Source of the DNA: a virus
DNA: 64,000 nucleotides
Virus record (IMG/VR): IMGVR_UViG_3300019487_000022
Coordinates: 25,241-89,240 of that record
Reading direction: 5' to 3' (one strand)
Positions 2,097 to 35,416 of this stretch are shown in pieces. How positions within the stretch are numbered: the first letter of the stretch is position 1; each line of letters opens with the position of its first letter. The notes under the pieces were generated by a model that made no database searches, was not told where the DNA came from, and saw nothing but the letters and a program-made list of their open reading frames with translations. The position numbers and the translations under genes were made by a program.

Positions 2097-3272
2097 TTAA
2101 ATCGCAATTCCATATTTAACACCAAGATATTTCTCAATTCTTTTTCTACGACTTGCATCTAAGTCATCACGAAATAAAAGAATAGCAGCAATATATCCGG
2201 TAAAATAACCGCCTCCATTATCTGTTCTTCTCCCTATTCTAAGATTTGTGGTACTAACGTTTATTGCGCCTGTACCTAATGCTGATTGTTGCAAAATACC
2301 GTTATAATAGAATTGCAAAGCAGAATCCGATGAACTGTATCTACCTGTCCATATTTGCCATTCGTTTGCTGTGATTATTCCTGTAGCAGAAGGGTGAACA
2401 AAACCACCAGATAAATTTGTTGGATTAGATGCACGTTGGTTGAAAATTTCTACTGAAAAAGAGTTTCCACCAGTTCCCCATTTGTGTAATAATACACTGT
2501 TTGCTATAGATACTGGCTTAACCACCAGAAAGGATACCAAAGATGTAGTAAAGTCTAATGATGATTTGTCTGTAATTTCTAGATAATCATTGCTACCATC
2601 AAAATATAAAGAATCCAAGCCGTTTAATGTCGTACCTCTTCTAAATGTCGGTCCAGAATTAGAAGTAGTCGAATTTCCATTTCCGCTTAAATCCGTCCAT
2701 ACGTTAATAGTTGAACCCTCTGCAGAAGTAATTGAATCAGATTCCAACCATAAAGATAATCCCTCAAAATCATTATCTTCAGTTATTGAAGCTGATATAA
2801 CCAAATACCAATTATTACCACTTCGTCGAATTATAAAAGGTTCGCCGCCAATATGAATTTCAGATTCTTCATCTATACTAGATAAATTTACTTGATGAAG
2901 TACTAAACAACTTCTTGAAACTGCTAGTGGAATGCCGGAAAAGATGGTTTCATCATCTATATTAAGCTCATCTGTACTTAACGAAACTGATAATACAGAT
3001 TTGTAACCTTGTTTTTTAATTGCTAATGGATTCCCATTTAGATAAACGGGTGCAACTGAGGCTTGAGTATTTTGATCTATTATTACTGCTAAAGAATATC
3101 TTCCATCTTGTTCTAAATATAACGTTAATGGTATTCCTGACACAAATATTTTTTCTGTTGTAGAAACAGAGTTGTTAGATAATATAGCACCAAGTATTAA
3201 ATCGTTGTTTGACGATAAATTAGCTGATAAGAATTTTGTTCCAAATAATATTTCCATATTAACTACTAACAC
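2097..3272 (-). CDS. LamG/concanavalin-A-like domain protein, possibly virion-associated
   Basis: C-terminal LSLWLESD...WTDLSGNGN...LYFDGSNDYL...FTGYIAAILLF...IEKYLGVKYGI is the LamG-like pattern. Confidence 0.65.
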   Translation of the reverse strand: MLVVNMEILFGTKFLSANLSSNNDLILGAILSNNSVSTTEKIFVSGIPLTLYLEQDGRYSLAVIIDQNTQASVAPVYLNGNPLAIKKQGYKSVLSVSLSTDELNIDDETIFSGIPLAVSRSCLVLHQVNLSSIDEESEIHIGGEPFIIRRSGNNWYLVISASITEDNDFEGLSLWLESDSITSAEGSTINVWTDLSGNGNSTTSNSGPTFRRGTTLNGLDSLYFDGSNDYLEITDKSSLDFTTSLVSFLVVKPVSIANSVLLHKWGTGGNSFSVEIFNQRASNPTNLSGGFVHPSATGIITANEWQIWTGRYSSSDSALQFYYNGILQQSALGTGAINVSTTNLRIGRRTDNGGGYFTGYIAAILLFRDDLDASRRKRIEKYLGVKYGIAI

Positions 3273-4362
3273 AGGAAAATGACAGAACCTCTACCATATC
3301 TTTATCGTCAACAGAAGGGGAACTAGGATGCATAATTTTAGTCAAACGAACAGCGTTTCTAATTTGTCTGCCATTAAGAGGCTGTTTAACTAAAATATCA
3401 TAACTTCCTGTGTAGTTAATACTAGCTTGTTTAAATAGATTTGCCCAAATCTTTTGTTTTGAATCATTATCCAACTTTGGATAATCTATTCTAATTGTTA
3501 CTCTTGATTTTAGAGCAAAATCTAATACATCAGGGATATTGGTTGTTAAAAACATTACCCCTCTATAATAATCCATCAATCGTAAAAAGACTCCAACAAT
3601 TGCTGAACGTTCTAAATCAGAATCTCTTGTTCTTAAGAAAATATCTACTTCGTCAAATAGTAACACAGCGTTCCATTTGGCTACTCTTGCAAATATAACC
3701 GATAAATTCTTTTCAACAATATCAACTTTAGTTCCTAATTCACTCATTTCCAAAACATATAAAGGACGGTTCGTGACTTCTGCATATACTTCGGCTGTTA
3801 ATGTTTTTCCTACCCCTGTATCGCCACATGCCAATATAACCAAGCCGCCATGTTTTCCCTTTATAATATCCCCCATTAATAATTCTGTTGGCGTATGAAA
3901 TATATTGGTAAGCATACCTGTTATTTTGGGAGGCAATACCAACCATTTCATCGCATCATTATCAAATTCGTAAGTTTGAATATCTCGAATATCAACATAA
4001 CAGTACTGTTTATGGTCAAGGCTAAAGATTCTAACAAATGGTAATTTTGTTTCTTGTTCACCTTTTGAACGAGAAGAATATGTTTGATTTTTGTCTAATT
4101 CTAGCGATGATTCAATTATAGCATTTCTTGCAAATGTCTTTGTTCCCAACGGGACATTATCAAAACCTACAAAATAATTGGAATATTTTCTAGGTTGTAA
4201 AACTGAGTTAGTTACTCTAACTAACTTACCTGATTCTTCCGCTGTTCTTTCTGCATTTAATAGTAATATATTATGTTCTGCAACAGGAATTTGCGCTTGA
4301 CGAATTCCAAATACTCCTAACAAGTCTCGTATCTTACGCGGTGTTTTTTTGTCCAACACCAT
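3259..4362 (-). CDS. AAA+ ATPase
   Basis: Walker A GDTGVGKT, Walker B LLFDEVD, sensor FLTTN and SRH-like ALKSRV. Confidence 0.9.
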   Translation of the reverse strand: MVLDKKTPRKIRDLLGVFGIRQAQIPVAEHNILLLNAERTAEESGKLVRVTNSVLQPRKYSNYFVGFDNVPLGTKTFARNAIIESSLELDKNQTYSSRSKGEQETKLPFVRIFSLDHKQYCYVDIRDIQTYEFDNDAMKWLVLPPKITGMLTNIFHTPTELLMGDIIKGKHGGLVILACGDTGVGKTLTAEVYAEVTNRPLYVLEMSELGTKVDIVEKNLSVIFARVAKWNAVLLFDEVDIFLRTRDSDLERSAIVGVFLRLMDYYRGVMFLTTNIPDVLDFALKSRVTIRIDYPKLDNDSKQKIWANLFKQASINYTGSYDILVKQPLNGRQIRNAVRLTKIMHPSSPSVDDKDMVEVLSFSCVSS

Positions 4363-4852
4363 CCCTGAACCAATTACGAGATATCATTGCGTACATATTC
4401 TCTGTAGTATCGCAAATACGAAGATTAATAGTTATTGTTAAAGTTTTATCTCGACCAGAAGTTGATAGACTAAAAGAAGAAAGATACCAACGGTCTTTAA
4501 GTTTTATTTCACAATTGTATTCTTTATCTAGTTTCATTAGTTCTGCTCCCATTTCGGAAGGCGAACTAACAAATGTATCAAATATTTCTGTAGGGTTAAT
4601 ATCTTTTAAGCTAACTCTTTCTTTAGTACGATAGAGTTGAAAAGAAATTTGTACCCTTTGATTTGGCGTGATTCTACCATCGTCTAGAATAGCTTTTAGT
4701 AAACCATGAGGAATATTTTTTATGTCGGTATTAATTCCATCGCAACTAGGATTTGCAGCAAATTGACTGCTTATCCATTGCTTTTCAATTTCATCTAATT
4801 TACCATCTGCAGCAATTTCTTGAAGAATGTGGGACGATAACTTTATTTTCAT
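4334..4852 (-). CDS. Hypothetical protein
   Basis: 172-aa ORF packed into the minus-strand operon; overlaps the AAA gene start. Confidence 0.55.
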   Translation of the reverse strand: MKIKLSSHILQEIAADGKLDEIEKQWISSQFAANPSCDGINTDIKNIPHGLLKAILDDGRITPNQRVQISFQLYRTKERVSLKDINPTEIFDTFVSSPSEMGAELMKLDKEYNCEIKLKDRWYLSSFSLSTSGRDKTLTITINLRICDTTENMYAMISRNWFRDGVGQKNTA

Positions 4853-4914
4853 GATTCCATGAATAAATGTCCGTCCTAAATATCTGGAGAGGCTCTTTCA
4901 GGTTGAATAAAATT

Positions 4915-5305
4915 TTATTCGCACAAATCATATTGATGTGAAAACAAGCCAATAGCATTTCGATGATGATCACAAGAATCCGCATATTTTTGAGTCTGAC
5001 GCTGAATCTGAAAATCTATTGGTAGGTTAGTAACACTAGATAAATAATGAGAAATAGAAATACAAATTATTTTCCATTGCGCATTTTCTCCAAAACTATC
5101 CGTTACTGGAAAAAAGCCTATCATATTCCTTATCTTCTAAAATAACGCGAATATCTACGTCTCGCCAATCTTGTTTGCGTAATACCGACCCAACAAGATA
5201 AACCCCACCGTGAGATCCAAAAGCTCGCCACAACGGTATACAAGCCACATCTAATTTGAAATAAGATGTAGTTGTTAAATAGTGAGCGTAGTGTTTTTTA
5301 GTCAT
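4915..5305 (-). pseudogene. Minimal nucleotidyltransferase (Pol-beta superfamily) split by a frameshift at 5110-5115
   Basis: N-half has YLVGSVLRKQDWRDVDIRVIL (GS...DxD). The C-half (WKIICISISHYL...LPIDFQIQRQ...RNAIGL) lies in the +1 frame after CTT TTT TCC. Confidence 0.6.
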
Positions 5306-5324
5306 TGGAGTTTTAAGATAATTA

Positions 5325-5618
5325 TTAAGGATGAGGAATATTAGCTTCTTTTCTATAAAGCTGACAACTTTCCCCACCTACCTCAAAATCCTTACAGACT
5401 GCAGGACGATGATCATAATGTTTACACTTTCCGGTAGATACATCAAGCCACATACATGGAATAGCATCATCTGAGTATCGCACAGAATTAACATAAAGAT
5501 CTATTTCTTGCTTAAATTCCGATGGTGGTTCATCTCCATCCATGTATGTAAAAGGAGGGACATTCATATGCATACAACACATACCACAATCATTGCAATT
5601 AACTATGGGTAAATGCAT
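5325..5618 (-). CDS. YkgJ-family CxxCxxCC cysteine-cluster (Fe-S/Zn) protein
   Basis: CNDCGMCC...CMWLD...CKHYDHRPAVCKDF. Confidence 0.8.
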   Translation of the reverse strand: MHLPIVNCNDCGMCCMHMNVPPFTYMDGDEPPSEFKQEIDLYVNSVRYSDDAIPCMWLDVSTGKCKHYDHRPAVCKDFEVGGESCQLYRKEANIPHP

Positions 5619-6028
5619 TTTATATTCCCATGTTTGTTGAAAATTTCTTGACCCATACTATAAGCTAATACGCATGTTCTTATTTTTCTTATCTCATCGT
5701 ATATTTCTTCATATGGTTTATTCTCGGCAATAGATAGATAAGTCGCTATTACGTGTGGGGATCTGCTTCTTCCTTGTTTGCAATGTACTAAAACAGTATG
5801 ACCTTGTGATATTAGATTTTGCAAATCCTTAACTATGTTAGCAGTTTTGATTATTGCATCATCTGCCTTATCTCGCATAGCAGACTTTACAGAAATAACT
5901 CCGCGATGATGTTCGGTAGCAAGTTCTTCTGCAACATTTAAAATTGCAGTAATTGGTGATTTTAATATGTAAATAAGACGGGCATCGTGTTTATCACCTA
6001 AATATAAGTTATGACGTATCTTGTCCAT
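5603..6028 (-). CDS. Dual-specificity protein phosphatase
   Basis: Catalytic loop VHCKQGRSRS (HCxxGxSRS); N-terminal LYLG motif. Confidence 0.85.
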   Translation of the reverse strand: MDKIRHNLYLGDKHDARLIYILKSPITAILNVAEELATEHHRGVISVKSAMRDKADDAIIKTANIVKDLQNLISQGHTVLVHCKQGRSRSPHVIATYLSIAENKPYEEIYDEIRKIRTCVLAYSMGQEIFNKHGNIKCIYP

Positions 6029-6104
6029 ACGTATACTTACAATTTATTGCTATTATACACCTTTATTTGATAAATAACTATATTGTATGATTGAATTTTA
6101 GATA

Positions 6105-7211
6105 TTATTTTTCCCTAAAAACTATCTTTGCAAATTTTTGTAATAGTGTTGGAGAACTATTTTCTCGCCTCATTCTATTTATAGTTGAGTTAGTTTTTTC
6201 TGTTTTTCTAATAATATCTTTTATTATTTCATTATCACTTATTTCATCTTTTTGACTTATATTTGCGTAATCATCTTTAAATGAACAAAAAGCATTAACT
6301 GCCCTGGATAACTTCAAATCATCTAAGCATAAATCATCACAAAGCATCATCTTTTTATAGCCAATATCATACAACCATGCTAATTCTGAAAAATCAACTG
6401 CATCAGGTACAGAACGACTAACACAGGATAAAAGAATTCTGGAACCAACAATTGCATTAGGATCAGCCTGAATAATAGTTTTCATGGCGTTAAGAATTTG
6501 ATGAGGTTTCGGAACTTCTACATACAAATCACCTCTAGCTGCCATTAAACATAAATTAGATTGACGTTTATAACCTTTTTTAACCCAATTTAATCCTTTA
6601 ATACTTTCAATTTTTGCCACGATTTCTGCGTCTTTTCCTACATATTCTCTTAACTCATCGATATCTCTTTGGCTTTCGACATAGGATAAAACATATTTAT
6701 TAAAGCCTGCTGCTTTTACTTTCTTGATTTTTTCAATTTCATAGTCTGGAAATGTCCCAAAAACTTTAAACGAATCGTCTCTTATACAAATAGATTCCCC
6801 AGTTTTTACATTAAATTTAGGAGCGCCTGGTGCAAAATGAAGAATTTGTTCTCCTGTTATTCCATCTTGAGTAATCTTATTCAAAACCGCATAATCTTCG
6901 CCAGCTTTAAAAAGAACCGTAGTTGGAGTTTTAACCTCAATCTTATGATTTAAGATTATACGTAAATGGTCTTCTTTTGGAATGACTTTACAGATTCTAA
7001 GTTGCCTTCCCTTGATATCATAATATAGAGGATTAGCAGTACCTTCGGATTGACGTAGCTTAACTTGTTCTAACTCTCCATCTAATTCTGATAAATCCAT
7101 CATTGCGCTATTGATTCTAATTCCAGCAATACGATCATCAAAGACAAACTTTTTAAAGTGAGGCATTGATGGAGAAAGCGTAACTAATAGATCTACAGAA
7201 TTAGTTTTCAT
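6105..7211 (-). CDS. Pyruvate-kinase-like barrel protein lacking the C-terminal regulatory domain
   Basis: RINSA, YDIKGRQLR, LSYVES, IVAKIES and LMAARGDLYVEV match PK A/B-domain motifs. Confidence 0.7.
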   Translation of the reverse strand: MKTNSVDLLVTLSPSMPHFKKFVFDDRIAGIRINSAMMDLSELDGELEQVKLRQSEGTANPLYYDIKGRQLRICKVIPKEDHLRIILNHKIEVKTPTTVLFKAGEDYAVLNKITQDGITGEQILHFAPGAPKFNVKTGESICIRDDSFKVFGTFPDYEIEKIKKVKAAGFNKYVLSYVESQRDIDELREYVGKDAEIVAKIESIKGLNWVKKGYKRQSNLCLMAARGDLYVEVPKPHQILNAMKTIIQADPNAIVGSRILLSCVSRSVPDAVDFSELAWLYDIGYKKMMLCDDLCLDDLKLSRAVNAFCSFKDDYANISQKDEISDNEIIKDIIRKTEKTNSTINRMRRENSSPTLLQKFAKIVFREK

Positions 7212-7226
7212 ATTCTTTGCCTTTAT

Positions 7227-8252
7227 TTAATCAAGCAAAGACTTGCTGCTTTTCGAGGCTGAATCCGCTGTTCTACGAGTAATAGAAGCGCCTTTGGGAC
7301 CAGGCAATTTCTTTTGAGTCTTTTTTGCATGGGGCAACCGCCCAGGTTCTCTGCCATGAATAGTTACGAGAGATTTCATAACCACTTCAATCTTCTTTTC
7401 ACCGTCCGCATCCTTTAGTTGTCTGTCTTTCAATTCGTCCTTAAATTCTTTGATTTTTCCGGTAGCTTTAGCAAAAATTCCGAAAATGACATCAACAACT
7501 CTACTTGCTTCCGGCAGTGGCGCAATATGATCTTTACCTAGTAATTCTTCCCATTGGGATTCAATTTTGATATCTGCATCGCTCATTCGGTTTCCAACAG
7601 CGCCATAAGGCTTTCTGATGATATAAACATCCCATTTCTTAGTTAATTCCTCCATGATATCTTTGAGAAACATGGAACTGGATGTTTTAACTTTACAGAA
7701 TTTTTCTGCATGGTCTGTGTACAGTTGTGGATGAATACCTTCATCGCCAATAAAGATTAGGATGGGACGGATAGCATTTGGAGTATCACAATTCCTAGAA
7801 TAGTAAATAGCGGCTAAATCATAACTTTCTTGACAAGAACCTCCACCCCCACCTTCAATAACTAACTTCTTCAATTTCTTTTCCAGCTCTTCGCCAGAAT
7901 CAAAATTCTGTACCTGCAAAGCATATTTATCACAGTAAGCATCACCTACAGCTGCAAATGAAATAGAATAATTATCTCCAAAATAAAACTTAGCTTCATG
8001 ATCAAGATATGGTAGTTTAGAGAAAATTGTAGCGGGCCATTCTCCCATTGAACCAGTTACATCACAAACGATAACAATAGGATTTTCACTGTCTGTACTG
8101 ACTCTATCTGGTACTAAATCAGTAACAGCGATGCCCTTTTTGACAGCATCATCATAACTTCTTCCTGCATGTATATCATAAGCAGCACGGGCTGATTTAA
8201 AAGTATCATGACTTGCCCAAGGCGCCGGTGTATAATCATTATCTTCTGGCAT
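7227..8252 (-). CDS. vWA-domain protein
   Basis: MIDAS-like CDVTGSMG, AVGDAY, GGGG..QESY and IFIGDE. Confidence 0.8.
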   Translation of the reverse strand: MPEDNDYTPAPWASHDTFKSARAAYDIHAGRSYDDAVKKGIAVTDLVPDRVSTDSENPIVIVCDVTGSMGEWPATIFSKLPYLDHEAKFYFGDNYSISFAAVGDAYCDKYALQVQNFDSGEELEKKLKKLVIEGGGGGSCQESYDLAAIYYSRNCDTPNAIRPILIFIGDEGIHPQLYTDHAEKFCKVKTSSSMFLKDIMEELTKKWDVYIIRKPYGAVGNRMSDADIKIESQWEELLGKDHIAPLPEASRVVDVIFGIFAKATGKIKEFKDELKDRQLKDADGEKKIEVVMKSLVTIHGREPGRLPHAKKTQKKLPGPKGASITRRTADSASKSSKSLLD

Positions 8253-8263
8253 TGATTATCTCC

Positions 8264-9241
8264 TTAGATTGGTAAAGGTTTCATTTTTGAAAATCTTCGC
8301 CCAAAAGATTTTTCTCTTACGTCACTTATAGATTGACATAAATCTTCTTTTTGCCAATTTGGGCGAGATAATACATTAAATTGAATCAAGTTTTTAATGA
8401 ATTTACAAATTTCGTCAGGAACAGATGGTGGAACCGCTTTTGAAGTCACGTCTCCACCTAAAGCGTAAATCATCGTCATTCCCAAACTAAAAAGGTCTGA
8501 CTCAGGAATTAATGGCATTCCTTTGGTTTGTTCTGGAGAAGCAAAATACGGCGTAAAACCCTTGTTTTTAGTAGTAGAATTTGGTTTAACTGCCGATAAG
8601 CCATAATCTACCAATACGACAGAATGGCGGTCTGGTTGCACAATGATATTTTGCGGTTTAACATCGCCGTGAACTACGCCATGTGTATGTAAATATCTGA
8701 GAGCATTTAAAACACGTTCTGTAATCCAACAAACATGTTCAGGTTCTAGTTTGCCATGTTTTTCTACTATTTGTCCTAATGTCGCGCCAGGAACATAACT
8801 CATTACAATTGCTAAACTATTATCATCTAATTTGATTATTTCTCTAATTGCCGGAATAGCCCAATGTCGCAAATCCCAGATAGCCTTAGCCTCTTCTTTC
8901 ATTATCTCTTCGTCTTGCAAACTAATTTGATTTGCATGCTTAATGCAAACATGTGTTCCTAATAATTCATGGCGGGCTTTATAAGTTGTTCCAAATCCCC
9001 CTTCTGCAATCGCGTCTTCTAGAATATAATTTCCAATTTTCTTTACTTTCTTAGGCGAATTTTCCTTATCATAAGCTGAGCGTTTATCTGTGTTTAAAAG
9101 TATTTCTTTTGCTTCATTTAAGTCTTGTAAAATTTTAGGGTTAGAAGCATGTTTAAGAGCTAAAGTTCTGTATGCCATATGAATGACTTCTTGACATGCT
9201 TTAGGATTTACCTCAAGGATGTTGTAATAATTCTTTCCCAT
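8264..9241 (-). CDS. J-domain (DnaJ-like) plus Hanks-type Ser/Thr protein kinase fusion
   Basis: N-terminal YYNILEV...AYRTLALKHAS...LNEAKEIL...RSAYD. Kinase motifs IAEGGFGTTY, VCIK, HGDVKPQN, DYG and ASPEQ. Confidence 0.88.
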   Translation of the reverse strand: MGKNYYNILEVNPKACQEVIHMAYRTLALKHASNPKILQDLNEAKEILLNTDKRSAYDKENSPKKVKKIGNYILEDAIAEGGFGTTYKARHELLGTHVCIKHANQISLQDEEIMKEEAKAIWDLRHWAIPAIREIIKLDDNSLAIVMSYVPGATLGQIVEKHGKLEPEHVCWITERVLNALRYLHTHGVVHGDVKPQNIIVQPDRHSVVLVDYGLSAVKPNSTTKNKGFTPYFASPEQTKGMPLIPESDLFSLGMTMIYALGGDVTSKAVPPSVPDEICKFIKNLIQFNVLSRPNWQKEDLCQSISDVREKSFGRRFSKMKPLPI

Positions 9242-9257
9242 TGTAAGGTGTTAGTAT

Positions 9258-10490
9258 CTAGGTTTTAGTTTCTGGAGAAAAGGTTTCTGGTATTCCAAAT
9301 ATCGTTTGATTTACCAGCCTTTTTGTTTTATTTTTAGATTTTGTTTCTTTAATAAATTTATTTAAGTTTGCGTCTTCATAATCCGCTGGTACTAAATAAC
9401 TAACGAGAGAAGGACGTGTAATTACCATACCGATTGTTTCAAAACAAACCAAACCTACTTTAAGATTTGGGATATTACGATCAGGATAAGTTTTTAAAGG
9501 CAAAGCAGTTTTAAAATTACCCAATTGCTTAGGGTCTCCGCTGAATAATATTCCGCCTGGATTCATATACCTTGAAACCAAAATATCTGCATCTTTGTAT
9601 TTTCCAAAACTATATTTAGGACCGACGCCTTTCATAAGATCTAAGTTATTTACTTTTGAAAAATCCCAGTCTTTCCCACGATATGTTCTCATTTCTGCGT
9701 AGTCTAATGTATGACATATCATGTATTTAACTTGGATCTGTTCGTTTACTGCATTATAAGATTTTGCAATTAAATTCTCAGTTATTCCGCCTGTGTATTC
9801 TATTATATTTTTTGAAATATAAGCAGAGGCTCGTAACATAAAGAAAAGATGAGAATTTTCACATTGTGCAATAGATTCGCAGGTTATTGCAGAAAGACGA
9901 CGAAAAACAGACGATCTATTATGTTCTAAGTCCGATATTTTCAAAGTGGGTCTTGCAGCAATTTGTACTGGTAATGGAAAAATTTCTTTTACATCTTTTA
10001 TAACGTGAGCTGAATCCCCTTCTAAAACCAATACCGGAGAATTAGTTACTATTGGAATAGCTGCAAAATTGTGTACCGTTTCTGTTTCATCTTCCTTTTT
10101 GTCTTCTTCTGAATTTAGAACTATCATAGGAAGTGATAAACTTCTAATTTTCTTATGGTATGATTCATTTATTTTATTTTGGATTGATGAAGGTTTTATA
10201 TCCAATAACTCTTTTATATCATCTATATTTAAATCTTTTAGTATATCTGAAAAGTTATTATGAAATCTTATTTCAGAGTGATTTATTTCGTTCGTATCAG
10301 AATCTGTGCTTTCTTTTGGTAAATTATTTTTAATATCATTTGCATAAATTTCGACACAACTGCGAATTAAATCTACATAAGATATATCCATATTTCTTTG
10401 AAATGATAACTTTCTTGCCTCTTGTTGTATTAAAGCAATTGTTTCTGGTAAAAACCTCATTGTTATAGGTTGCAACTCTGATTCATTCAT
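9258..10490 (-). CDS. Major-capsid-protein paralog with an N-terminal ribbon-helix-helix-like domain
   Basis: The C-terminal ~230 aa align by eye with the MCP at 27764-28648. The N-terminus ITMRFLPETIALIQQEARKLS...ISYVDLIRSCVE fits an RHH strand-helix-helix pattern. Confidence 0.7.
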   Translation of the reverse strand: MNESELQPITMRFLPETIALIQQEARKLSFQRNMDISYVDLIRSCVEIYANDIKNNLPKESTDSDTNEINHSEIRFHNNFSDILKDLNIDDIKELLDIKPSSIQNKINESYHKKIRSLSLPMIVLNSEEDKKEDETETVHNFAAIPIVTNSPVLVLEGDSAHVIKDVKEIFPLPVQIAARPTLKISDLEHNRSSVFRRLSAITCESIAQCENSHLFFMLRASAYISKNIIEYTGGITENLIAKSYNAVNEQIQVKYMICHTLDYAEMRTYRGKDWDFSKVNNLDLMKGVGPKYSFGKYKDADILVSRYMNPGGILFSGDPKQLGNFKTALPLKTYPDRNIPNLKVGLVCFETIGMVITRPSLVSYLVPADYEDANLNKFIKETKSKNKTKRLVNQTIFGIPETFSPETKT

Positions 10491-10500
10491 ATTCTTCTCC

Positions 10501-10523
10501 GATTACAAGATTACACGATTACA
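10501..10523 (-). promoter_or_regulatory. Three GATTACA direct repeats at 8-bp period, candidate operator
   Basis: GATTACA at 10501-07, 10509-15 and 10517-23, directly upstream of the GGAGAAG RBS of the RHH-MCP gene. Confidence 0.55.
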
Positions 10524-10583
10524 TTTTTATATCGTTATATTATTGACAATTAATTTAATATAGTGTAAATAACTTCTATTAAT

Positions 10584-10883
10584 ATGGTAGCGGTTTCATC
10601 TATATTCTATAAAGTATACTTAGATATTCCCTTATCTGAGGCTAGAAAATCTGCGCAATTGGCTTATATAGTAAATCCAGATTGCTTTGCTATTTATGTA
10701 ACTCGTTCAGGGCATGCTACTTGGAAAAGAAATAACGATTCTTATGGGATGGAAGGTGGTTGGATTTGGCCATTAAAAGCAAAAATAAACTTTTATAGCG
10801 GGTCTTTTGGTCATGTTACGGAGCGTCAAGCAGTTTTAAATGCTTTATCTAACTTCTTTTCTATTAACTTTCGGTCTGCTTAA
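10584..10883 (+). CDS. Hypothetical protein
   Basis: 99-aa ATG ORF divergent from RHH-MCP; TTGACA at 10543-48 upstream. Confidence 0.5.
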   Translation: MVAVSSIFYKVYLDIPLSEARKSAQLAYIVNPDCFAIYVTRSGHATWKRNNDSYGMEGGWIWPLKAKINFYSGSFGHVTERQAVLNALSNFFSINFRSA

Positions 10884-10887
10884 ACTA

Positions 10888-13248
10888 TTATTGTTTTGGA
10901 TGTTTAAGTATGTGTAGCTCATTTTTGGCGCGAGTATATGCAATATATTTTGCATTAGCCTCTTGTCCTAATTCTTCTTCAGATTTAGCTTTTGGATGAG
11001 GAAATAACTCATTATGTAATATAAACACTCTATTAAATTCTAATCCTTTTGAACGGTGAGCGCTTGTTAAAGTGATAAAAGATGCTGGATCCTTTTTCTT
11101 TAAAACACCAGCGCCTTCAACCGTGTCGATATTGATGCCAGCGAATCTTTGTTTTAAATAAGATATAAATGAATTAGTATCTCTAATAACAAAATTAAGT
11201 CTGCGGTCAATGAAATTTGTTCCTCTTAAATGCTCTACAATATGCGAAATGGATGCAGAAATGTCTTGCATTTCTTTTAATTCATCTGATTTGCTTAATT
11301 TACCAGCCCACTTCTGTTCCACATCAGTCATAAATCTATCAATTTCTCGCGTAAAACCAGATATCGGAATGTTCTTTGCAAACCTGCCTTTGCCTGTAAT
11401 CATTTCTACAAATCCAACTAACTCTTGAGAGAAATCACGACCTATAATCGCAAATTCCATATCATTTTTCATTAATTCTAATGCAGCATCAACAAGCGGT
11501 CTATTTGTTCTGGATATAAATGCTGTTTGGTCTTTTAATTTATTACCTTGTTTCCATTCGTTAAATAAATTACCCAAAGCTTCATCATACATTGTGCCAT
11601 TTGTTACCGAACCAGTATGCTTAGCACCAGCAACCAAGTTTTTAACATGGGTATTTTGATTTACAAAATCAATAATTGCCGTTCCACAACGATAATTAGC
11701 AGGTAATTCATGTAATTTACTAGCTTGAGCAGTCCCTTGAATAGTAGTTTGAATGTTATCAAATGCTTTGGCGTCTGCCCCTCTAAACATATAAATTGCT
11801 TGATTTGGATCACCTACTGCAACTACACGAGACTGAGCTTTCAATAAATTCTCTATCATCTTCATCTGGCATTTGTTGAAATCTTGGACTTCATCAGCTA
11901 ATACTACATCATATTTAGGCCAAATTAGATTAGGATTTAATGCAGTATACCATAATGTGTCATCCTGATCCCTAAAGCCCTGGAAATCTGGATTTATAGC
12001 GTTATTCGGCAAACAATAATGTAAAACATCTAATGTTTTATCAATTAGCCTGTTAGCCCAATTAACGTTGCTAGTATGACGTTCTGTAGATAAGTCTGTA
12101 TCAATTTGATATTGCTTTATAATACTTTCTATTAACGATGCAGCTTTGGCATCTTGAGGATCTATTGCATACGCCTTACTTAACGATGCTAATCTTTTAA
12201 TAGTTCTTTTTGCAGCAAAACGAACTTGACGTGGAAAAATATTATCTTCTTCCATAATTTCATCAAGAATGGCATTTATGCGTTCGCCCTTCTGGTTCCA
12301 AATATCTGTGGCAGGAGCCACGCTTTTTTGAGCATTTGTATTCAATAACTCACCGAGGAAAGAGTGACTAGTTTTGACTTCTACACCATTTGGAAAAGCA
12401 CCATCACCTGTTGAAGCTTCAACTTGATTCTTCTTATTAAAGACTAAGTATAACCATCTTGCACTAGGATCTTTAAATGATGCCAAGTGTCTTAATTGGG
12501 TTGTTTTCCCCGTACCAGCTAAAGCATTAATAACTATACTATCATTTGTTTGTAAAAATGTATTTTCAATCGCCTTATTATAAGGACTCATTCTGCTTTC
12601 TGGCATCCTGCCTGGAACAATATTTTCTTCTTCAACTTTTTGTTCTTCAATAATTCTCTGATCTTCAGGTTGTTCATTGTCAAAAAATGTAAATAAGGCA
12701 ACAGGATCTGTCCCTGTCAAAGGTTTACCTTGTGTATCTCGTATGGATTTAACTAAATTTTTAATGTTGCTTGCCGGGAATACACCTTCATTACCAGAAC
12801 GATCTAACCATATCCATTGATTACCATCTATTGATTTAGTTACGACTACAGGAGCATTGTCACTTATACGTTTTGACAATACCCATGTTGGAGCGCCTGG
12901 TTGGACATTCTTATTAAACCAATTTCCGCCTGTTTGTTGAGGAACAGCAGTAGGATTATTTACCGCTGGTGATGGTGAATTAATTGGTTGAGTTATTGGT
13001 TGCTGAGGGGTTTTGAATGGGATGCCAAATGATTGCAGAAGGCTTAAGGCAATAGGATTATTAGGTATTTGATCATATTGTGATTTCCAAATTCTATTTT
13101 TATCATCCCAACGGAAGCCAGCTTGAAACAGTTGTGACCTGGATTCATATGTACCATTTCCGAATAGTCCCAGATATTTTAGACCATCTGTATCCGTAAA
13201 AACTCTACTGTTTATGTTTGCAGCCATTATCTCTTTAAACCAGTTCAT
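10888..13248 (-). CDS. UvrD/Rep-like superfamily 1 helicase with N-terminal extension
   Basis: ALAGTGKTT, LVFNKK, LADEVQD, VGDPNQAIYMFRGAD, NYRC, SAHRSKGLEF and YIAYTRAK. Start moved to the ATG at 13248 (MNWFKE). Confidence 0.92.
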   Translation of the reverse strand: MNWFKEIMAANINSRVFTDTDGLKYLGLFGNGTYESRSQLFQAGFRWDDKNRIWKSQYDQIPNNPIALSLLQSFGIPFKTPQQPITQPINSPSPAVNNPTAVPQQTGGNWFNKNVQPGAPTWVLSKRISDNAPVVVTKSIDGNQWIWLDRSGNEGVFPASNIKNLVKSIRDTQGKPLTGTDPVALFTFFDNEQPEDQRIIEEQKVEEENIVPGRMPESRMSPYNKAIENTFLQTNDSIVINALAGTGKTTQLRHLASFKDPSARWLYLVFNKKNQVEASTGDGAFPNGVEVKTSHSFLGELLNTNAQKSVAPATDIWNQKGERINAILDEIMEEDNIFPRQVRFAAKRTIKRLASLSKAYAIDPQDAKAASLIESIIKQYQIDTDLSTERHTSNVNWANRLIDKTLDVLHYCLPNNAINPDFQGFRDQDDTLWYTALNPNLIWPKYDVVLADEVQDFNKCQMKMIENLLKAQSRVVAVGDPNQAIYMFRGADAKAFDNIQTTIQGTAQASKLHELPANYRCGTAIIDFVNQNTHVKNLVAGAKHTGSVTNGTMYDEALGNLFNEWKQGNKLKDQTAFISRTNRPLVDAALELMKNDMEFAIIGRDFSQELVGFVEMITGKGRFAKNIPISGFTREIDRFMTDVEQKWAGKLSKSDELKEMQDISASISHIVEHLRGTNFIDRRLNFVIRDTNSFISYLKQRFAGINIDTVEGAGVLKKKDPASFITLTSAHRSKGLEFNRVFILHNELFPHPKAKSEEELGQEANAKYIAYTRAKNELHILKHPKQ

Positions 13249-13324
13249 TACTGTATCCACTTTAATCAAAGTTAATACAGTTTAAATTCGTCTTTTTTAC
13301 TGGTTCCCCTTTGTTTTTAAAAAC

Positions 13325-14462: not shown

Positions 14463-15014
14463 ATGTACCTGGAGAGGTCAATCTGTGCATCTCCAGCGGA
14501 ATATTTTAAAAATTTATTTGATTTCATGAAGACTTTAAATTCTTGGGAAGATTTACGTCAATACTTAAATGAAATTCACGAGAAAGAACCTGACAAATTA
14601 AAATTACCTGTTCAGGCTGGCAATCCTTCTCCAATGGAAGCAGAGCCTGTTGAAATGGAAGTAGGTGTTTGTATTGGCACATTTGATGAAATGGAGTTCT
14701 ACGCTGCGCGTTCTATCACTAATAATCAATTTAACCCAAATGAATTATGTATCCTACTAGATGGTAATCCATTTGGTAAAGATGGCGCAATCGCTTATCA
14801 GTTGGACCCTAACGATAAGAGCGAAGACAATTTTTTTGGCGAAAAAAATCCTATTTATTCTAAAACAATAGGAAAAACCCCTATTGAAACTCAATTAAAT
14901 CCCAAATTACAAATTATCAAAGACGAAATACGTGATAAAAAACGGGATAAATTTTTCGGTAAAGCATGTGAAATAGAAATAATAAAAAATAGAATTGATA
15001 ACTCTAAACTATAA
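14463..15014 (+). CDS. Hypothetical protein
   Basis: 183-aa ORF with protein-like composition; no motif recognised. Confidence 0.55.
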   Translation: MYLERSICASPAEYFKNLFDFMKTLNSWEDLRQYLNEIHEKEPDKLKLPVQAGNPSPMEAEPVEMEVGVCIGTFDEMEFYAARSITNNQFNPNELCILLDGNPFGKDGAIAYQLDPNDKSEDNFFGEKNPIYSKTIGKTPIETQLNPKLQIIKDEIRDKKRDKFFGKACEIEIIKNRIDNSKL

Positions 15015-15029
15015 TTAAGGTTAATATTT

Positions 15030-15425
15030 ATGAAATGGACACATCAAATTTACCAATCTGGAACACAAATTGTAATATCAGATAATCCTAATTTCCCGCA
15101 TTTTTATGTATATGGTCCAAAAGCAACTGGACCATATGATGAAGAGGGATGTTGCTTAACTAGCTTAAAGATAAGATATTCAATGTGTAAAGATATAGTA
15201 GAATATCTAAATGAAGGTAAAAAACCAGATTGGTTCAATAAAATGAACAGAGTGAGTGAAACAGTTTTAAGTGCAGACGATGGTTGTATGGTTTTTACAA
15301 CTGGTCCTTATTACGATGCTAATCCTCCACATTTAAAATGGGATTTAAAAGAGGATGAGGAAAGTAAAAACCGTAGAAAAGGATTAATAGATTTTCTTCA
15401 GGATCAAAATAAAACTATACAATAG
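15030..15425 (+). CDS. Hypothetical protein
   Basis: 131-aa ATG ORF with TAAGG upstream. Confidence 0.6.
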   Translation: MKWTHQIYQSGTQIVISDNPNFPHFYVYGPKATGPYDEEGCCLTSLKIRYSMCKDIVEYLNEGKKPDWFNKMNRVSETVLSADDGCMVFTTGPYYDANPPHLKWDLKEDEESKNRRKGLIDFLQDQNKTIQ

Positions 15426-27763: not shown

Positions 27764-28648
27764 TTAGCTTGCGCTAACTACTTCGATTTTCGACATACTA
27801 TAGTCATTGACAACTACAATACCGACTTCCTCATAGATTACCCAACCCAAACGTAATTTCTTAGGATCATCGCATGGGATAACGGTGATTTCCTGACGAA
27901 CAGGGAATGCACCGACGTTTTCAGCAGCAGCGAGAACAAGAACGGTGTTCTGTTCCATGCGGCTGGTTACGTGGATATCGGCAGTCCATAAGTGACCGAA
28001 CAACCCAGTTGTGATAACTTCGCGCTGAGAAGCTTCGTCATAGAAGGTCTTACCAAGTACGCGAATTGACGAGTACTGGAGAGCATTCATAACGATCTTA
28101 GCAGCTACTAAGTCGTGCTGTTCAATCAAGCGGAAAGCAGTGTTCAAAGAAGCAACGGAAAGAGTCCCGATGTTCTGAACAATTTGATCTCCACCTTCTT
28201 TGTTATCAGCAGCAGAAATCAAAGCAGCGAAGATATGTGTATCTTCCTCTTTTTGAATAGCTTCTTTAGCTTTTATCTGTGCGCGATCAACGATATAAAA
28301 GCGGTGAGCTTTAATTTCGGATAAGCGAACAGTTGGGTTTGCACCGATTTCAAATGTTGGAACGAGAATTTCTTCTGCTTCAATAATTTGATCAGGTACA
28401 CCACCACGGCGGCTGATAACAGTTGCCTTAGCTGCAACGTCACGTTCGTAACGAGCAGTAGCACCCTGTGGGAGTTCGTCAACCATCAAGAGCTTGCGAC
28501 CGACAGCTTGATACTCAAGAGATCGGCGAATAGGCTCTACCATTGCCTGAGCAAGAGCAGTACGACCTTCTGGAGTTTCCATAGCCTGAGCTATAATCCA
28601 TTTGCGCTGTTCTTGTGTTAAACCATTTTTTACCATTGCCATTGTCAT
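27764..28648 (-). CDS. Major capsid protein (HK97-like fold)
   Basis: 294 aa at the end of the head operon after the protease and decoration genes; strong TAAGGAG RBS with an upstream hairpin; terminal LGWVIYEEVGIVV typical of HK97-type MCPs. Confidence 0.85.
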   Translation of the reverse strand: MTMAMVKNGLTQEQRKWIIAQAMETPEGRTALAQAMVEPIRRSLEYQAVGRKLLMVDELPQGATARYERDVAAKATVISRRGGVPDQIIEAEEILVPTFEIGANPTVRLSEIKAHRFYIVDRAQIKAKEAIQKEEDTHIFAALISAADNKEGGDQIVQNIGTLSVASLNTAFRLIEQHDLVAAKIVMNALQYSSIRVLGKTFYDEASQREVITTGLFGHLWTADIHVTSRMEQNTVLVLAAAENVGAFPVRQEITVIPCDDPKKLRLGWVIYEEVGIVVVNDYSMSKIEVVSAS

Positions 28649-29332: not shown

Positions 29333-32300
29333 TTAGATGCGATTAAAACTAGATAACAATCCAAAATCTTTGTTCTTAGCTGTTTCCTGGTTCATTTCGT
29401 CCATTTTAAACAAGCTTTGAATCTGATTTACTAACTGTTCATCAATGCTTGACTTCTTCATTGATGAAGCTTCGTTAATAATTAGGGGCTTTTGAAGTCC
29501 CTCTGACACCGAACGGAGTCCTTTGTTCTTCGAAACAACTTGAGCAAAAACTGCTTTTTCGTAGTCTCGAATTTGATCAGGCTGATATTGAGCAAGTTGC
29601 GAGATCTTGTTTTCGAGTTGTGTTTCCTCGATAACTCCCGCTTTGAGAAGTCTTGCCGCTACGCGGAATGCTTCCTTATTTCTTGCTGCCTTGGATTCCT
29701 CATTGCTTTTCGCAATGACAGTGCCTTTAATATCTGTTTGCTTTTCTGGGTTTAATTCAGCATCGCCTTCATGACCCATTAAAGCGCCGGATGTACCACC
29801 TTCTGGGACATCAGGATGATCTTTTGGTGACTTTGGTACGCTACCCAAAGTATCAGCTTCATGACCCATCATTGAGCCATTTCCAGTATCTTCTGTATTG
29901 TTTGGCTTTTTGGCAGAAAAAGGTTCTTCATGCCCTAAAGCTTTTCCATTGCTGTGTGGATTAAGATCTTCATCTTCGCTTACAGCCTTTGGAGCTTGCA
30001 ATTTAGTTGCAAGTCTTTCAAACAACGCATCTTCTCTATCTTTTGAATTTCCAACAGATCCTCTCATGGATCTGAGTTCAGTTTCAAGTTCAGCAGTAAT
30101 AATTTCCCCATCTTCAGATGCCTTTACTTCTGTTTGTCCAGCACCTGGGGAACCACCGCCAATTCCTACACCACCTGTAAATCTTACGTCTCCACCGCTA
30201 AGTCCAACTTCGCTTTCATGTCCCAAAGTTCCTTTATCTGATGGAATCTGTGGAAGATTTTCTTCCTTATTAATATTCTCATTCTCATGACCCATACGAG
30301 CGTCAGAGCGAGGAACAGAAGGAAGAGATGCATCAGGAATAGTTTCTGATTCATGTCCCATTTCTCCTACTGTCTTTCCATTTTGAGGATCTCCAGCGGA
30401 GAAAGGACCAATATCTTTAGAATCCTGTACTTTTTCTTGTTGAATTTCTTTTTCGCCAGCAACCTTAAGACCAAGCTTAGCTGCTAATGCGTTGTAATCC
30501 AAACCATTCATCTTTTCTACTCCACCAACTGAAGATCTCATATAAGAAGCTTCATTGATGCTGTATTCTCCGTTTGCTACTTTTTCGGCTTGTCCATTAG
30601 CCATTACAGGATTTCCTTCTTTGAAGTTATTTATTTCACCCGGACCTTGCTGGAATCCTTCTTGTTTTTTGTGATTTTGCACATTATTTTGTTGTGCGTT
30701 ACCATTTGAACAAGGTTTTGCTTCATTCATAGCTGCATTTGCACATGGTTTTGAAGTTTCAAGACCAAGTTCTGCAGGACCACCAACTTCTTGTACGAGA
30801 TCATTTTCGCTCAACATTCCAGCACCATCTGGTTGTGCAGTTTCAACGCCTGGAAGTGGGTTATTTGTATCTCCAGCATTTGCATCATCGGCTGGATTAG
30901 ATCCAAGTTGAGCATCCAATTTAGCGTCTAACTCTTTTGCAACTTCTAGTGGCAACTCAAGAGTTACAACTTGATTATCTTCTACAGAGTTTTCATCAAA
31001 AGGATTAAAATCATCATCTCTTGTTTCATCGATATCGGTTGGAGGACCATCATTGTTTCCACCGTTGTCATCTCCACCATTACCGTTGTCGCCTGGATTG
31101 TCATTTCCTAAATCATCAGCAAACATTTCTTCATCGCTTGCAAGTGATGTCTTCAAAGCAGAACAAGTAATTGCTGCTTGGCGAAGAGATAGATTATTCT
31201 TAACTAAATAAACTACGCAGTCTTCTGTCCCATCAACATCCGACCAGGTTTCAGCAACTTTAAGTGCAATATTGTCTGTATAAACTTGAGCTTTCTTGAG
31301 CGAGTTACAGACGCAATCATAAATTGGTTTGCCTTCGCAAGGTCCGCTGAGAGCGAGAGCATTCTTTCCATAGCGACGTGCTAATTTTTCGCGACAGCTT
31401 TCAATTGGGAATTTTTCGCCATAAGCAGAAGCATAAGTTTTCTTATAATCTGCTAAAACGCTTCCTTCTTTAACTGAAACGCTAGTTGATGCAAACTCTT
31501 TAATCTTTGCAAGAACCTTCGTCTTCTGACCTGGTGTCATGAGATCAAATTGATCTTCTGTAATACCAGCGTTTTTAAGAACTTTTATTAATTCATTTCT
31601 TGCTCTTCGGCATGATGGACAAACATTCTGATTAACAGGTGGAGTCCATGTCCAGCGAGCATAAGGAGTAATAGGAGCGTCTTTAGATGCACTCTTAGCA
31701 GCTCTGAATTCGACTTCATATGGACGACCTGTATCTAAACATACCCATTTATTGTCACCAAGGCTCATTGTATTGCGAGATCCAGTAATTGGACTTACGC
31801 TACCCAATTCAATCTTGGCTTCAGCAAGTTTAGTAAGAACACCCTTATCAAGACGCATTGTTGCGGCTACTGGAAGTTCAGGGGCTTGTCCAGTATCATC
31901 GGTTGGAAGTTCAAAACCTTCTCCACCGAATTCATCTTCAACTTGACCACCATCTTTTTCGCCGCCAAAAATACCTGGCTGTTCTGTAATAATATTATGA
32001 ATTTCAGTATAGAATTTTGTACCGCAATTATTACATTTGCTTTCTTTACCTACAGCATCAACATTAGCGCTACCGCAGCCTGGACATACCGCACCAGGTG
32101 GTTTTGCCTTCTTTTCACCCTCTTCTTCAGGTTGCTCAGAAGGATCTGTTCCATCCTGAGAGAAGGTTTCAACTGGCTGTTGTTCTTGTCCTGGTGGTTG
32201 TGGAACAGTAGCGCCAGCGCCTGGGGCTTGTGCAGCACCGCCTTGACCGCCCATTTCACCGCCAAGCATTTGAGCTTGTTTTTCAATTTCGTGACGTGCA

Positions 32301-35300: not shown

Positions 35301-35416
35301 ATTGATGCTGTTTTTATTATTTTAGGTAGATTAAATATTTCCCAACCTTTAGGAGTATTTAATGGAACCATGCGTAATTTTACATTTTGTGATAAAGCGC
35401 TTTTAGTAAATGCCAT
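29333..35416 (-). CDS. Prohead maturation protease fused to a very long scaffold/core region (2027 aa)
   Basis: N-terminal FIGVPIFTNH...TGTSMGC gives the His/Ser pair of caudoviral prohead proteases. Cys-rich modules, low-complexity linkers and internal repeats follow. It sits between portal and MCP. Confidence 0.75.
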   Translation of the reverse strand: MAFTKSALSQNVKLRMVPLNTPKGWEIFNLPKIIKTASISKSNDQDLGGLVLSAELEKHPDDLFVKIFAIKENEPNDNADCFSPEELAKAASTFIGVPIFTNHKNDDIENARGECVHAWYSKEDKGINLIARVDKIAYPKLARSIEEGYATGTSMGCAVGYSCCSICHNKASTAEEFCSHIKESKNRTKSGKYACKFHESDCKPECDCPVCGCKKGSSKEHEIDSEKVFEWNYDLKFIENSFVVNPACHSCGVTCVLHAPEVTKKIAELKKQIADLGFIHAKNPRMFDKAASDGKLSMPIKTASVEEVKIAGQIELDMLKDSMKSLENVTRSMLSQREHIDPEYIGQIIEAMSKLQDTYDELNEMGYAQLQSTPQAELARTGAVQPAEPQQSQQAKAPAPKPAPQNNASSSQEARTELPDGLGSITLPKQSSDLGKNKKESIKSADNLIKRLIIAKNLIEQIDNLTRSSDVSDDFRIESDTNSNIVSFQNVNVWENEDDVNSHHVLVSSNNKMFALAKGSSILEVKTAANLPDNIAKLAETDIRKAAENYLENYLQNIKESESKMSTPTNKTAQTEGNASQQEVITEKQLSKNPPALHPRWNETYEQTTESKEQLGRSDDKSNDTTSESPQKRLGTYETITEDQLAKVTSGYILRTNDAPEVITEKQWTDMSNLVSAKLPDDWTETITQDQLRKLLKDHRFVGTYETITEDQLKNQDSGIKRWASKSYVSQLTKIAVNAISDAIASFKKTPEDIKRVLSSVLNNPTELNKVAFITVLNSLPHKNEERKALMNSVNYFNKVAGNEIKTSTLDAVIVAVAENAIAGTKAEDVFETMLYSLKQKPAMDKVNKIVASKLASVDKIEDEFDKFAALNDAIQGMDGYDIRATVSEIGADPKDKVAFNKACKKFASSKIESENIQIKSIKVAQDAGLVRMLIDALEDVAAKMNGGAADVDVEFVGDGDLGENIENIDGALNGPGGTDTCGGDPLEVSDVSESPDNSTDNSVEEDKPMMGGPAQAPATSQPANAPVSASTNVTKRAAARHEIEKQAQMLGGEMGGQGGAAQAPGAGATVPQPPGQEQQPVETFSQDGTDPSEQPEEEGEKKAKPPGAVCPGCGSANVDAVGKESKCNNCGTKFYTEIHNIITEQPGIFGGEKDGGQVEDEFGGEGFELPTDDTGQAPELPVAATMRLDKGVLTKLAEAKIELGSVSPITGSRNTMSLGDNKWVCLDTGRPYEVEFRAAKSASKDAPITPYARWTWTPPVNQNVCPSCRRARNELIKVLKNAGITEDQFDLMTPGQKTKVLAKIKEFASTSVSVKEGSVLADYKKTYASAYGEKFPIESCREKLARRYGKNALALSGPCEGKPIYDCVCNSLKKAQVYTDNIALKVAETWSDVDGTEDCVVYLVKNNLSLRQAAITCSALKTSLASDEEMFADDLGNDNPGDNGNGGDDNGGNNDGPPTDIDETRDDDFNPFDENSVEDNQVVTLELPLEVAKELDAKLDAQLGSNPADDANAGDTNNPLPGVETAQPDGAGMLSENDLVQEVGGPAELGLETSKPCANAAMNEAKPCSNGNAQQNNVQNHKKQEGFQQGPGEINNFKEGNPVMANGQAEKVANGEYSINEASYMRSSVGGVEKMNGLDYNALAAKLGLKVAGEKEIQQEKVQDSKDIGPFSAGDPQNGKTVGEMGHESETIPDASLPSVPRSDARMGHENENINKEENLPQIPSDKGTLGHESEVGLSGGDVRFTGGVGIGGGSPGAGQTEVKASEDGEIITAELETELRSMRGSVGNSKDREDALFERLATKLQAPKAVSEDEDLNPHSNGKALGHEEPFSAKKPNNTEDTGNGSMMGHEADTLGSVPKSPKDHPDVPEGGTSGALMGHEGDAELNPEKQTDIKGTVIAKSNEESKAARNKEAFRVAARLLKAGVIEETQLENKISQLAQYQPDQIRDYEKAVFAQVVSKNKGLRSVSEGLQKPLIINEASSMKKSSIDEQLVNQIQSLFKMDEMNQETAKNKDFGLLSSFNRI

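Follow-up and report, generated by a model that had tools for sequence, protein, structure and literature searches.

An accessory paralogue of the phage major capsid protein fused to a ribbon-helix-helix-like domain and preceded by conserved, operator-like boxes

The gene discussed here is located on the minus strand of a 64,000-nucleotide stretch of viral DNA (hereafter the window; positions 25,241 to 89,240 of the IMG/VR record IMGVR_UViG_3300019487_000022). It encodes P0001, a protein in which an N-terminal ribbon-helix-helix (RHH)-like domain precedes an HK97-fold domain paralogous to the major capsid protein (MCP) of the same phage. This architecture is shared by a whole family of proteins, which has a single origin and accelerated evolution, and short boxes are conserved upstream of its genes. 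The reading that we favour, tentatively, is that P0001 is an accessory, self-regulated DNA-binding protein whose capsid half serves as an assembly-coupled switch. The record that holds the window measures 123.8 kb and is rated only 26% complete, and the phage must therefore be very large.

The N-terminus of P0001 is RHH-like. The initial annotation had proposed that roughly the first 45 residues fit an RHH, and this is borne out by structure prediction, by sub-threshold family matches among the relatives, by stand-alone homologues of about 55 aa and by the ribbon of a predicted dimer. The AlphaFold2 (AF2) model of the whole protein, built with the family alignment A1, has a predicted local distance difference test score (pLDDT) of 71 and a predicted template modelling score (pTM) of 0.67; the single-sequence model was uninformative (pLDDT 32). 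At the N-terminus an extended segment (residues 7-13) is followed by two helices (15-31 and 38-55, pLDDT 75-86), which is the strand-helix-helix order of the fold. In the model, the ribbon at about residues 7-13 (PITMRF) would turn the alternating residues P8, S/T10 and R12 to the DNA side, with T10 and R12 of P0001 positioned toward DNA, and family members hardly vary at S/T10 and R12. The N-terminal stretch of approximately 55 aa is well conserved among the members, with a mean column identity of 48-53%.

Profile searches gave RHH matches below threshold. Among 23 family N-termini, CopG_antitoxin of Pfam matches 11 (best 7e-4) and RHH_1 matches seven (best 1e-4), none of them shown above the curated cut-off. 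Whole P0001, its residues 1-70, 1-150 and 140-410, and the MCP were scanned against Pfam without a useful result. In a comparison of the family profile with the PDB, CopG was the best named match, at an E-value of only 0.44 and aligned over the strand and the first helix. The look-alikes of residues 1-58 in the ESM Atlas belong to RHH_1, RHH_4, RHH_6, MetJ and HicB/Arc clusters, with template modelling (TM) scores of 0.55-0.67.

As a homodimer, the RHH domain was predicted with a score of 0.61, versus 0.02 for the best of three controls; the partner chain has a pLDDT of 83, and the runs agree to at least 96%. Of proteins solved as homodimers, 20 of 30 reach the mark applied to this score, compared with one of 23 solved as single chains. 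Predicted contacts (10:10, 12:8 and 9:11) describe an antiparallel ribbon, accompanied by packing of helix B against helix B. The dimer prediction supports, without showing, a homodimer. Relatives of the domain also exist as stand-alone proteins of 55-67 aa (P0020; L088-L096), which is the usual size of RHH repressors. Those of L088-L096, 55-60 aa in length, sit in AT-rich metagenomic contigs (e.g., L088:1000-1161). Their upstream regions contain no GTAATC boxes of the type described below, so they add no support to that motif.

The remainder of the protein is dominated by an HK97-like capsid domain, as the initial annotation had suggested from two short peptide alignments with the MCP. Both alignments are real: BLASTP places residues 147-357 of P0001 onto residues 71-279 of the phage's own MCP, with 20% identity and an E-value of 2e-11. 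The product of the MCP gene is assigned to PHROG 2522, 'major head protein', with an E-value of 2e-64, and it shares 74% identity with MCP P0006, a typical MCP of a widespread large-phage group. P0001 itself matches PHROG 2522 at E 4.4e-13, and phmmer connects the P0001 family with MCP P0006 at E 1e-15. In the AF2 model, residues 193-225 of the capsid body form a long spine helix, and the P and A regions are rich in beta structure. Foldseek returned 322 matches in the PDB at E <= 0.001, with the shells of SaPI1, HK97, T5 and encapsulins at about 1e-9 and probability 1.0, and its top match in BFVD is gp27 of Bacillus phage G (E 2e-17). In the ESM Atlas, the structure rows for the capsid domain have TM scores of 0.64-0.80.

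The capsid half of the family is close to a complete MCP. One of the fusions aligns over residues 115-361 with residues 37-282 of an MCP (32% identity, E 6e-31), and therefore holds almost the whole of it. Two motifs of the predicted E-loop region, RRGAVPDQI..EGE and PTFEIA.NP, are kept in most fusions and are the most conserved ones in true MCPs. Such retention suggests that capsomer-type contacts may survive. Between the two domains lies a linker that varies in length and sequence among the homologues in alignment A1; in P0001, residues 60-81 are modelled as disordered (pLDDT <50), and helices appear at 89-124. Basic C-terminal tails like that of P0001 also end several homologues.

The second line of evidence concerns the DNA in front of the gene. 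Three GATTACA repeats at an 8-bp period had been noticed just upstream of it, and their position, exact period and excess over chance all hold up. The boxes lie at 10501-10507, 10509-10515 and 10517-10523 and read TGTAATC on the gene strand and GATTACA on the plus strand. The array is unique within the 123.8-kb record, in which no further clusters of boxes were found beyond two weak pairs. The start codon of P0001 is an ATG located 6 nt past the ribosome-binding site GGAGAAG.

The same boxes emerge from an unbiased k-mer count of the 70 nt upstream of ten family genes, taken from homologues that share only 23-53% protein identity. The pentamer ATTAC/GTAAT occurs 20 times versus 2.2 expected, GATTAC/GTAATC is the top 6-mer (13 versus 0.42 expected, P 1e-15), and GATTACA/TGTAATC is found eight times versus 0.2 expected. 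These k-mers outrank both the -10 element GTATAAT and the ribosome site GGAGAT. With the window left out, 10 six-mer boxes remain versus 0.29 expected, distributed over six of nine loci (P 8e-13). As a prospective test, three extra loci were collected after the motif had been defined; they belong to the most divergent subfamily and contain 10 five-mer boxes in 219 nt versus 0.88 expected (P 4e-8).

The arrangement of the boxes is also recurrent. The exact pattern GTAAT-N3-GTAAT-N3-GTAAT occurs four times in 143 kb of family loci, each time 29-42 nt before a family ATG, in the independent loci of the window, L102, L103 and L003 (the last in the opposite orientation). Other loci carry two or three boxes, in mixed orientation in L083, L097 and L099, at spacings that include 16, 17 and 24 bp, and these boxes adjoin or overlap the -10 element and the GGAG. 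Altogether, boxes are present at the same place in 11 of 13 loci. Conservation of this kind would be the expected signature of an autoregulatory operator. None of the three outcomes that the initial annotation listed as refuting came about: the predictions give an RHH-like N-terminus and an HK97 fold at the C-terminus, and on binding to the repeats the conserved boxes bear indirectly.

Two other explanations of the repeats were rejected. One places them at the RNA level; the fold of the 5' untranslated region (5'UTR) is no better than that of shuffled sequences (z -0.47), and the orientation of the boxes flips between loci. For these reasons, and because invariance is seen both in the box core and in the ribbon residues, recognition of duplex DNA is favoured over recognition of RNA. 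The other was suggested by GTAAT triples at 25940-26742, which might have formed a centromere- or pac-like array; the region is an array of clustered regularly interspaced short palindromic repeats (CRISPR), in which one repeat is copied about 11 times. The array consists of about 11 units of 71 bp, each with a 36-nt repeat and a variable spacer. Every repeat contains three GTAAT/ATTAC cores, including the palindrome GTAATGCATTAC, and thus the same 5-mer as the RHH boxes. In the CRISPR repeat, these cores carry G, not C, after the core, and the overlap in the 5-mer is probably a coincidence. The neighbours of the array encode a 1137-aa protein with a TnpB/RuvC-like match (22477-25890) and an 819-aa helicase-like protein (20027-22486).

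Tandem boxes of this kind are familiar from RHH repressors. MetJ binds 8-bp metboxes, and omega (pSM19035) binds 7-bp heptads in direct or inverted arrays, both in a cooperative manner. The P0001 family resembles both in having a small N-terminal RHH with S/T and R on the ribbon, and it has the corresponding operator layout, with tandem boxes in the window, L003, L102 and L103 and boxes of mixed orientation in L083, L097 and L099. Non-palindromic boxes arranged head-to-tail at an 8-bp period are reminiscent of metboxes in particular, and direct and inverted boxes at different promoters, overlapping the promoter and the 5'UTR, are reminiscent of omega. In contrast to both, the box of P0001 is TGTAATC, its RHH is tethered to a capsid-fold domain of about 290 aa, and its DNA binding is putative. 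Moreover, P0001 has neither a co-repressor nor a partition partner, and the similarity of the family to Pfam RHH models is below threshold.

The family is scattered among uncultivated phages. A word-indexed homologue search, with P0001 alone and also with the family profile, returned only P0001 itself. The initial annotation had recommended looking for the fusion in other phages, and an exhaustive HMMER search of 1.84 billion representatives produced about 20 full-length homologues of 350-410 aa, which align from residue 1 to approximately 360 (alignment A1). All of them come from uncultivated metagenomic phage-like contigs. In the complete 138-kb phage G001, the fusion is accompanied by a normal MCP about 67 kb away. 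In locus L101, the fusion gene and the MCP gene share a strand, with the fusion 2.5 kb downstream. Directly behind the fusion comes a third MCP-like gene (L101:4231-5040; 269 aa, phmmer E 5e-11 against an MCP, no RHH); this phage has three capsid-family genes within 5 kb. A scan of 185,579 species genomes with a motif for the fusion N-terminus found none. Among 78 related IMG/VR capsid loci, the fusion occurs in two, which are contigs with identical sequence, and in none of the contigs of 460-550 kb; both figures come from one narrow N-terminal pattern, and the count is a lower bound.

The phylogeny places the family within the MCPs. In a maximum-likelihood tree of the shared capsid columns, rooted on gp27 of phage G, the fusions form one clade (Shimodaira-Hasegawa-like approximate likelihood-ratio test, SH-aLRT, 95) nested among MCPs. 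Their terminal branches measure 0.5-3.5 substitutions per site versus 0.02-0.25 in MCPs, a difference of about 10-fold. Long-branch effects are possible in such a tree; the shared RHH independently supports a single origin. The fusion arose once, when an MCP duplicate was joined behind an RHH domain, and it is an accessory, fast-evolving gene. With the phage G-like MCPs (PHROG 2522; gp27), the fusions have in common the HK97 fold, sequence homology and a position inside the MCP radiation. They differ from these proteins in the added RHH and linker, in their roughly 10 times faster evolution, in being accessory rather than universal, and in the type of promoter.

TATAAT, usually as TGTATAAT, is present within 70 nt upstream of the gene in eight of 13 fusion loci versus none of 12 MCP genes (P 0.002). 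This suggests that fusion genes are transcribed by host sigma-70 and belong to a temporal class other than that of the head genes. The positions of the promoter candidate, the boxes and the other features are collected in Table 1.

Table 1. Features of the P0001 locus and related genes in the window
Feature	Coordinates	Strand	Basis or remark
P0001 gene, RHH-HK97 fusion, 410 aa	9258..10490	-	Open reading frame (ORF) listing and sequence
RHH domain, aa 1-55	10326..10490	-	AF2, sub-threshold Pfam matches in relatives, dimer prediction
Acidic linker of variable length, aa 56-118	10137..10325	-	First part disordered, last part N-arm-like helices
HK97-fold capsid domain, aa ~119-370, paralogous to the MCP of the phage	9381..10136	-	BLASTP, PHROG, Foldseek
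Lys-rich C-terminal tail, aa 371-410	9261..9380	-	Low model confidence, pLDDT 33-35
Shine-Dalgarno GGAG, abutting the last box	10497..10500	-	Sequence
Three tandem TGTAATC boxes, 8-bp period, putative operator	10501..10523	-	Sequence; k-mer enrichment
Weak candidate -10 TATAAA, 2 nt before the first box and lacking a good -35	10526..10531	-	Sequence
Downstream same-strand genes	3259..9241	-	J-domain Ser/Thr kinase, vWA-like, PK-barrel-like, dual-specificity phosphatase, CxxCxxCC, AAA+
True MCP, 294 aa, parent family of the paralogue	27764..28648	-	PHROG 2522

P0001 lies outside the head module, among accessory genes and 17 kb from the MCP gene, in agreement with the earlier remark that the paralogue is far from the head operon. 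The gap between P0001 and the downstream kinase gene is 16 nt, with no terminator-like site between them. The genes behind P0001 are probably co-transcribed with it in this phage only and, because of the short gap and the missing terminator, the boxes probably gate the kinase-to-AAA+ operon as well. Across the family, the surroundings of the fusion are variable and include genes for glycosyltransferases, PARP, TnpB-like and kinase/vWA proteins; the fusion gene is often convergent with its neighbours or alone. An all-against-all BLAST of the neighbours in 10 loci revealed no conserved partner gene, and PHROG scans of the genes downstream of fusions found a further MCP-like gene only in L101.

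A few additional features were noted near the gene. A 14-bp direct repeat (two copies, 85% match) at 9246-9273 spans the P0001 stop codon and the start region of the J-domain kinase gene. On the other side, an ORF of 99 aa on the plus strand (10584-10883), which has no family match, is divergent from P0001 and precedes a UvrD-like helicase gene (10888-13269). If real, it shares a 93-bp control region with P0001.

Other observations concern the MCP and the head module. The MCPs of the phage group are mutually 72-98% identical, and they are unusually conserved across contigs of 4 kb to 548 kb from many metagenome samples (L007-L079). In eight loci (L015, L016, L035, L062, L070, L080, L081 and L082), the MCP gene is in two pieces about 0.4-1.3 kb apart (~6700-9700 in each), which suggests introns, inteins or homing-endonuclease insertions. 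The window also encodes a 2027-aa protein whose N-terminus matches prohead protease families (29333-35416) and a portal protein to which an additional HNH-endonuclease-like region is appended at the C-terminus (35962-38241). The complete 138-kb phage that carries the fusion (locus L018) contains two CRISPR-like arrays, at 12127-12358 and 14981-15280, located 4-7 kb downstream of its MCP gene; they have a 65-66-bp period and a repeat with a CCCC...GGGG hairpin.

On the reading of P0001 as an assembly-coupled switch, RHH dimers would occupy the TGTAATC boxes, three in number and spaced by 8 bp, which follow the -10 region and precede the ribosome-binding site. Bound dimers would cover the transcription start and the 5'UTR and in this way repress the promoter of their own gene. 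In this phage, the same repression would reach the kinase, vWA, phosphatase and AAA+ genes behind P0001. The HK97-fold half would still make capsomer-type contacts while no longer evolving like a shell builder, and the accumulation of MCP and the assembly of heads would draw the repressor off its operator. These steps are not equally firm. DNA binding and autorepression by the RHH are well supported and very likely, to judge from the conserved boxes, and control of the downstream operon is a reasonable expectation. Titration of the repressor by MCP or procapsids is possible, with considerable doubt.

Mechanisms of this type are known from unrelated proteins. In PutA and in the scaffolding protein of P22, the free protein represses its own synthesis and is withdrawn on recruitment, to the membrane or to the procapsid, respectively, and PutA also has an N-terminal RHH. 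Beyond the RHH fold there is no homology between these proteins and P0001, whose sequestration by procapsids is hypothetical.

Several observations weigh against P0001 as a self-regulated, assembly-coupled switch. Its dimer score may reflect mere likeness to solved RHH dimers, which are well represented among structures. Locus L087 has no box and two loci have a single one; part of the enrichment is owed to four loci in which a box overlaps or abuts the GGAG through the shared GGAGATTAC context, and what is conserved there could be a setting for translation initiation. The -10 and -35 elements of the window are weak, and a consensus promoter scan listed no site at 10526..10531. Since the downstream genes differ in every phage, any regulated 'output' is not conserved. 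P0001 is also the most divergent member of its family (23-25% identity to the others) and has the longest branch (3.52 substitutions per site), and most of the E-loop-region motif shared with MCPs is gone from it. Contact with the MCP may thus be lost in the window copy, and its capsid domain may work differently from those of its relatives. Finally, a regulator is no better match than a conflict gene for such fast evolution and patchy distribution.

An autoregulated effector of conflict is nearly as likely an explanation as the assembly-coupled switch, if unlikely when taken alone. The capsid half would then be an MCP mimic, either a decoy for capsid sensors or a poison for the heads of competing phages, and the RHH would set its dose. 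Branches about 10 times as long as those of the parent MCP, combined with a better conserved DNA-binding domain, agree with such a role, as do the patchy occurrence as a solitary accessory gene in variable regions and a sigma-70-type promoter unlike that of MCP genes, which suggests early expression. MCPs as similar to each other as those of this group would be a good target for host sensors, and most members keep the motifs shared with MCPs. However, neither a defence sensor nor a target was identified, and a poison subunit should also hurt the MCP of the phage that makes it, which is nearly identical. Most of the MCP-like surface motifs are gone from the window copy, and no match to known anti-defence families turned up, where none was sought.

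A related arrangement is found in AcrIIA1 and in acr operons controlled by Aca proteins, in which an N-terminal DNA-binding domain represses its own strong promoter, a faster-evolving effector is fused or linked to it, and the whole is an accessory phage gene. AcrIIA1 differs in its helix-turn-helix domain and in an effector that is not capsid-like, and the fusion resembles it by architecture and evolutionary pattern only. A broader statement may be considered for both readings together, namely that a capsid duplicate has turned into a DNA-binding switch, either as a checkpoint that reads free MCP or procapsids, or as an autorepressed MCP mimic directed against capsid-sensing immunity or competing phages. 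As a claim about P0001 it remains doubtful.

Two further roles, as a DNA anchor in the head and as a mere oligomerisation scaffold, are less likely than the assembly-coupled switch and the conflict effector, and each is improbable. As a minor head protein, the fusion would co-assemble with the MCP, its N-terminus directed inward, and the RHH would hold on to the packaged DNA, either at GTAAT boxes or without specificity, with autoregulation keeping the copy number low. In HK97, the N-arms and delta domains do point inward. The HK97 domain of the fusion is complete and includes N-arm-like helices, the C-terminal tails are basic, the fusion of L101 stands 2.5 kb from the MCP gene with a third MCP-like gene next to it, and, as it happens, three GTAAT/ATTAC cores are present in the 36-nt CRISPR repeat of the phage that encodes P0001. 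Nevertheless, the gene is missing from most related phages, including those represented by contigs of 460-550 kb (as judged by a narrow search pattern), it evolves far faster than the lattice into which it would have to fit, and its promoter type is unlike that of MCP genes. The sole 6-mer box array of the 123.8-kb record is at its own promoter, and the CRISPR cores carry G, not C.

The fast evolution, at about 10 times the rate of MCPs, the patchy occurrence and the promoter type argue in general against a stoichiometric shell or vertex role. A regular MCP would be expected in the head module of all phages of the group; P0001 is encoded away from that module, and the fusion is patchy. A comparison with gp24 of T4 is instructive in this respect. 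In both cases a second HK97-fold gene derives from duplication of the MCP (gp23 in T4) within the same phage. Gp24 is a late structural protein encoded beside gp23; normal heads depend on it, and it lacks a DNA-binding domain. The fusion family occurs patchily, is putatively self-regulated and for the most part lies remote from the MCP gene. A vertex paralogue of the gp24 type would be a conserved late structural gene; the fusion has a sigma-70-like promoter, occurs sporadically and is usually found far from the MCP gene.

Alternatively, P0001 could be a plain transcription factor, in which the capsid fold would serve as an oligomerisation scaffold forming capsomer-like rings that present several RHH dimers, with head assembly and conflict no longer involved. 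RHH proteins such as MetJ and omega often need higher-order cooperativity on tandem boxes, and the long flexible linker and the three or more boxes per promoter would suit such rings. This leaves the retention of MCP-specific motifs in most members unexplained, as well as the reason for keeping a large, fast-evolving domain just for oligomerisation; besides, two weak pairs are the only other candidate target boxes clustered in the record. A last reading takes the gene for a decaying copy of the MCP gene, extended at its N-terminus by chance and preceded by slippage repeats that have no function. It is suggested by the strong divergence of the window copy, by the capacity of slippage to make short tandem repeats and by the 27 low-scoring repeats that Tandem Repeats Finder lists in the window, but it is extremely improbable. 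Conservation throughout the family excludes a dead copy: some 20 lineages keep the ORF intact, the N-terminal domain is at 48-53% mean column identity, and boxes stand at the same place in 11 of 13 loci.

A search of the literature for an RHH-HK97 fusion, for MCP paralogues of such a type and for a self-regulated capsid paralogue found nothing relevant. RHH autorepressors and MCP paralogues are each of a known kind; their combination is new, as are the conserved operator and the evolutionary behaviour. HK97-fold proteins are known as shell builders, in the capsids of phages and herpesviruses and in encapsulins. If the proposed reading is true, P0001 and its relatives would be the first HK97-fold proteins to have a defined operator and to be dedicated to regulation or conflict.

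An RHH-capsid paralogue of this kind would show that the HK97 fold has been recruited to regulate genes or to serve in conflicts of phages with their hosts or with each other. It offers a compact and directly testable system, composed of a protein domain of about 55 aa and a DNA site of 24 bp. The unusual kinase/vWA/phosphatase/AAA+ operon of this phage may have P0001 as its master switch. Provided that the MCP is still bound by the capsid domain, the protein would represent a simple natural sensor of capsid assembly.

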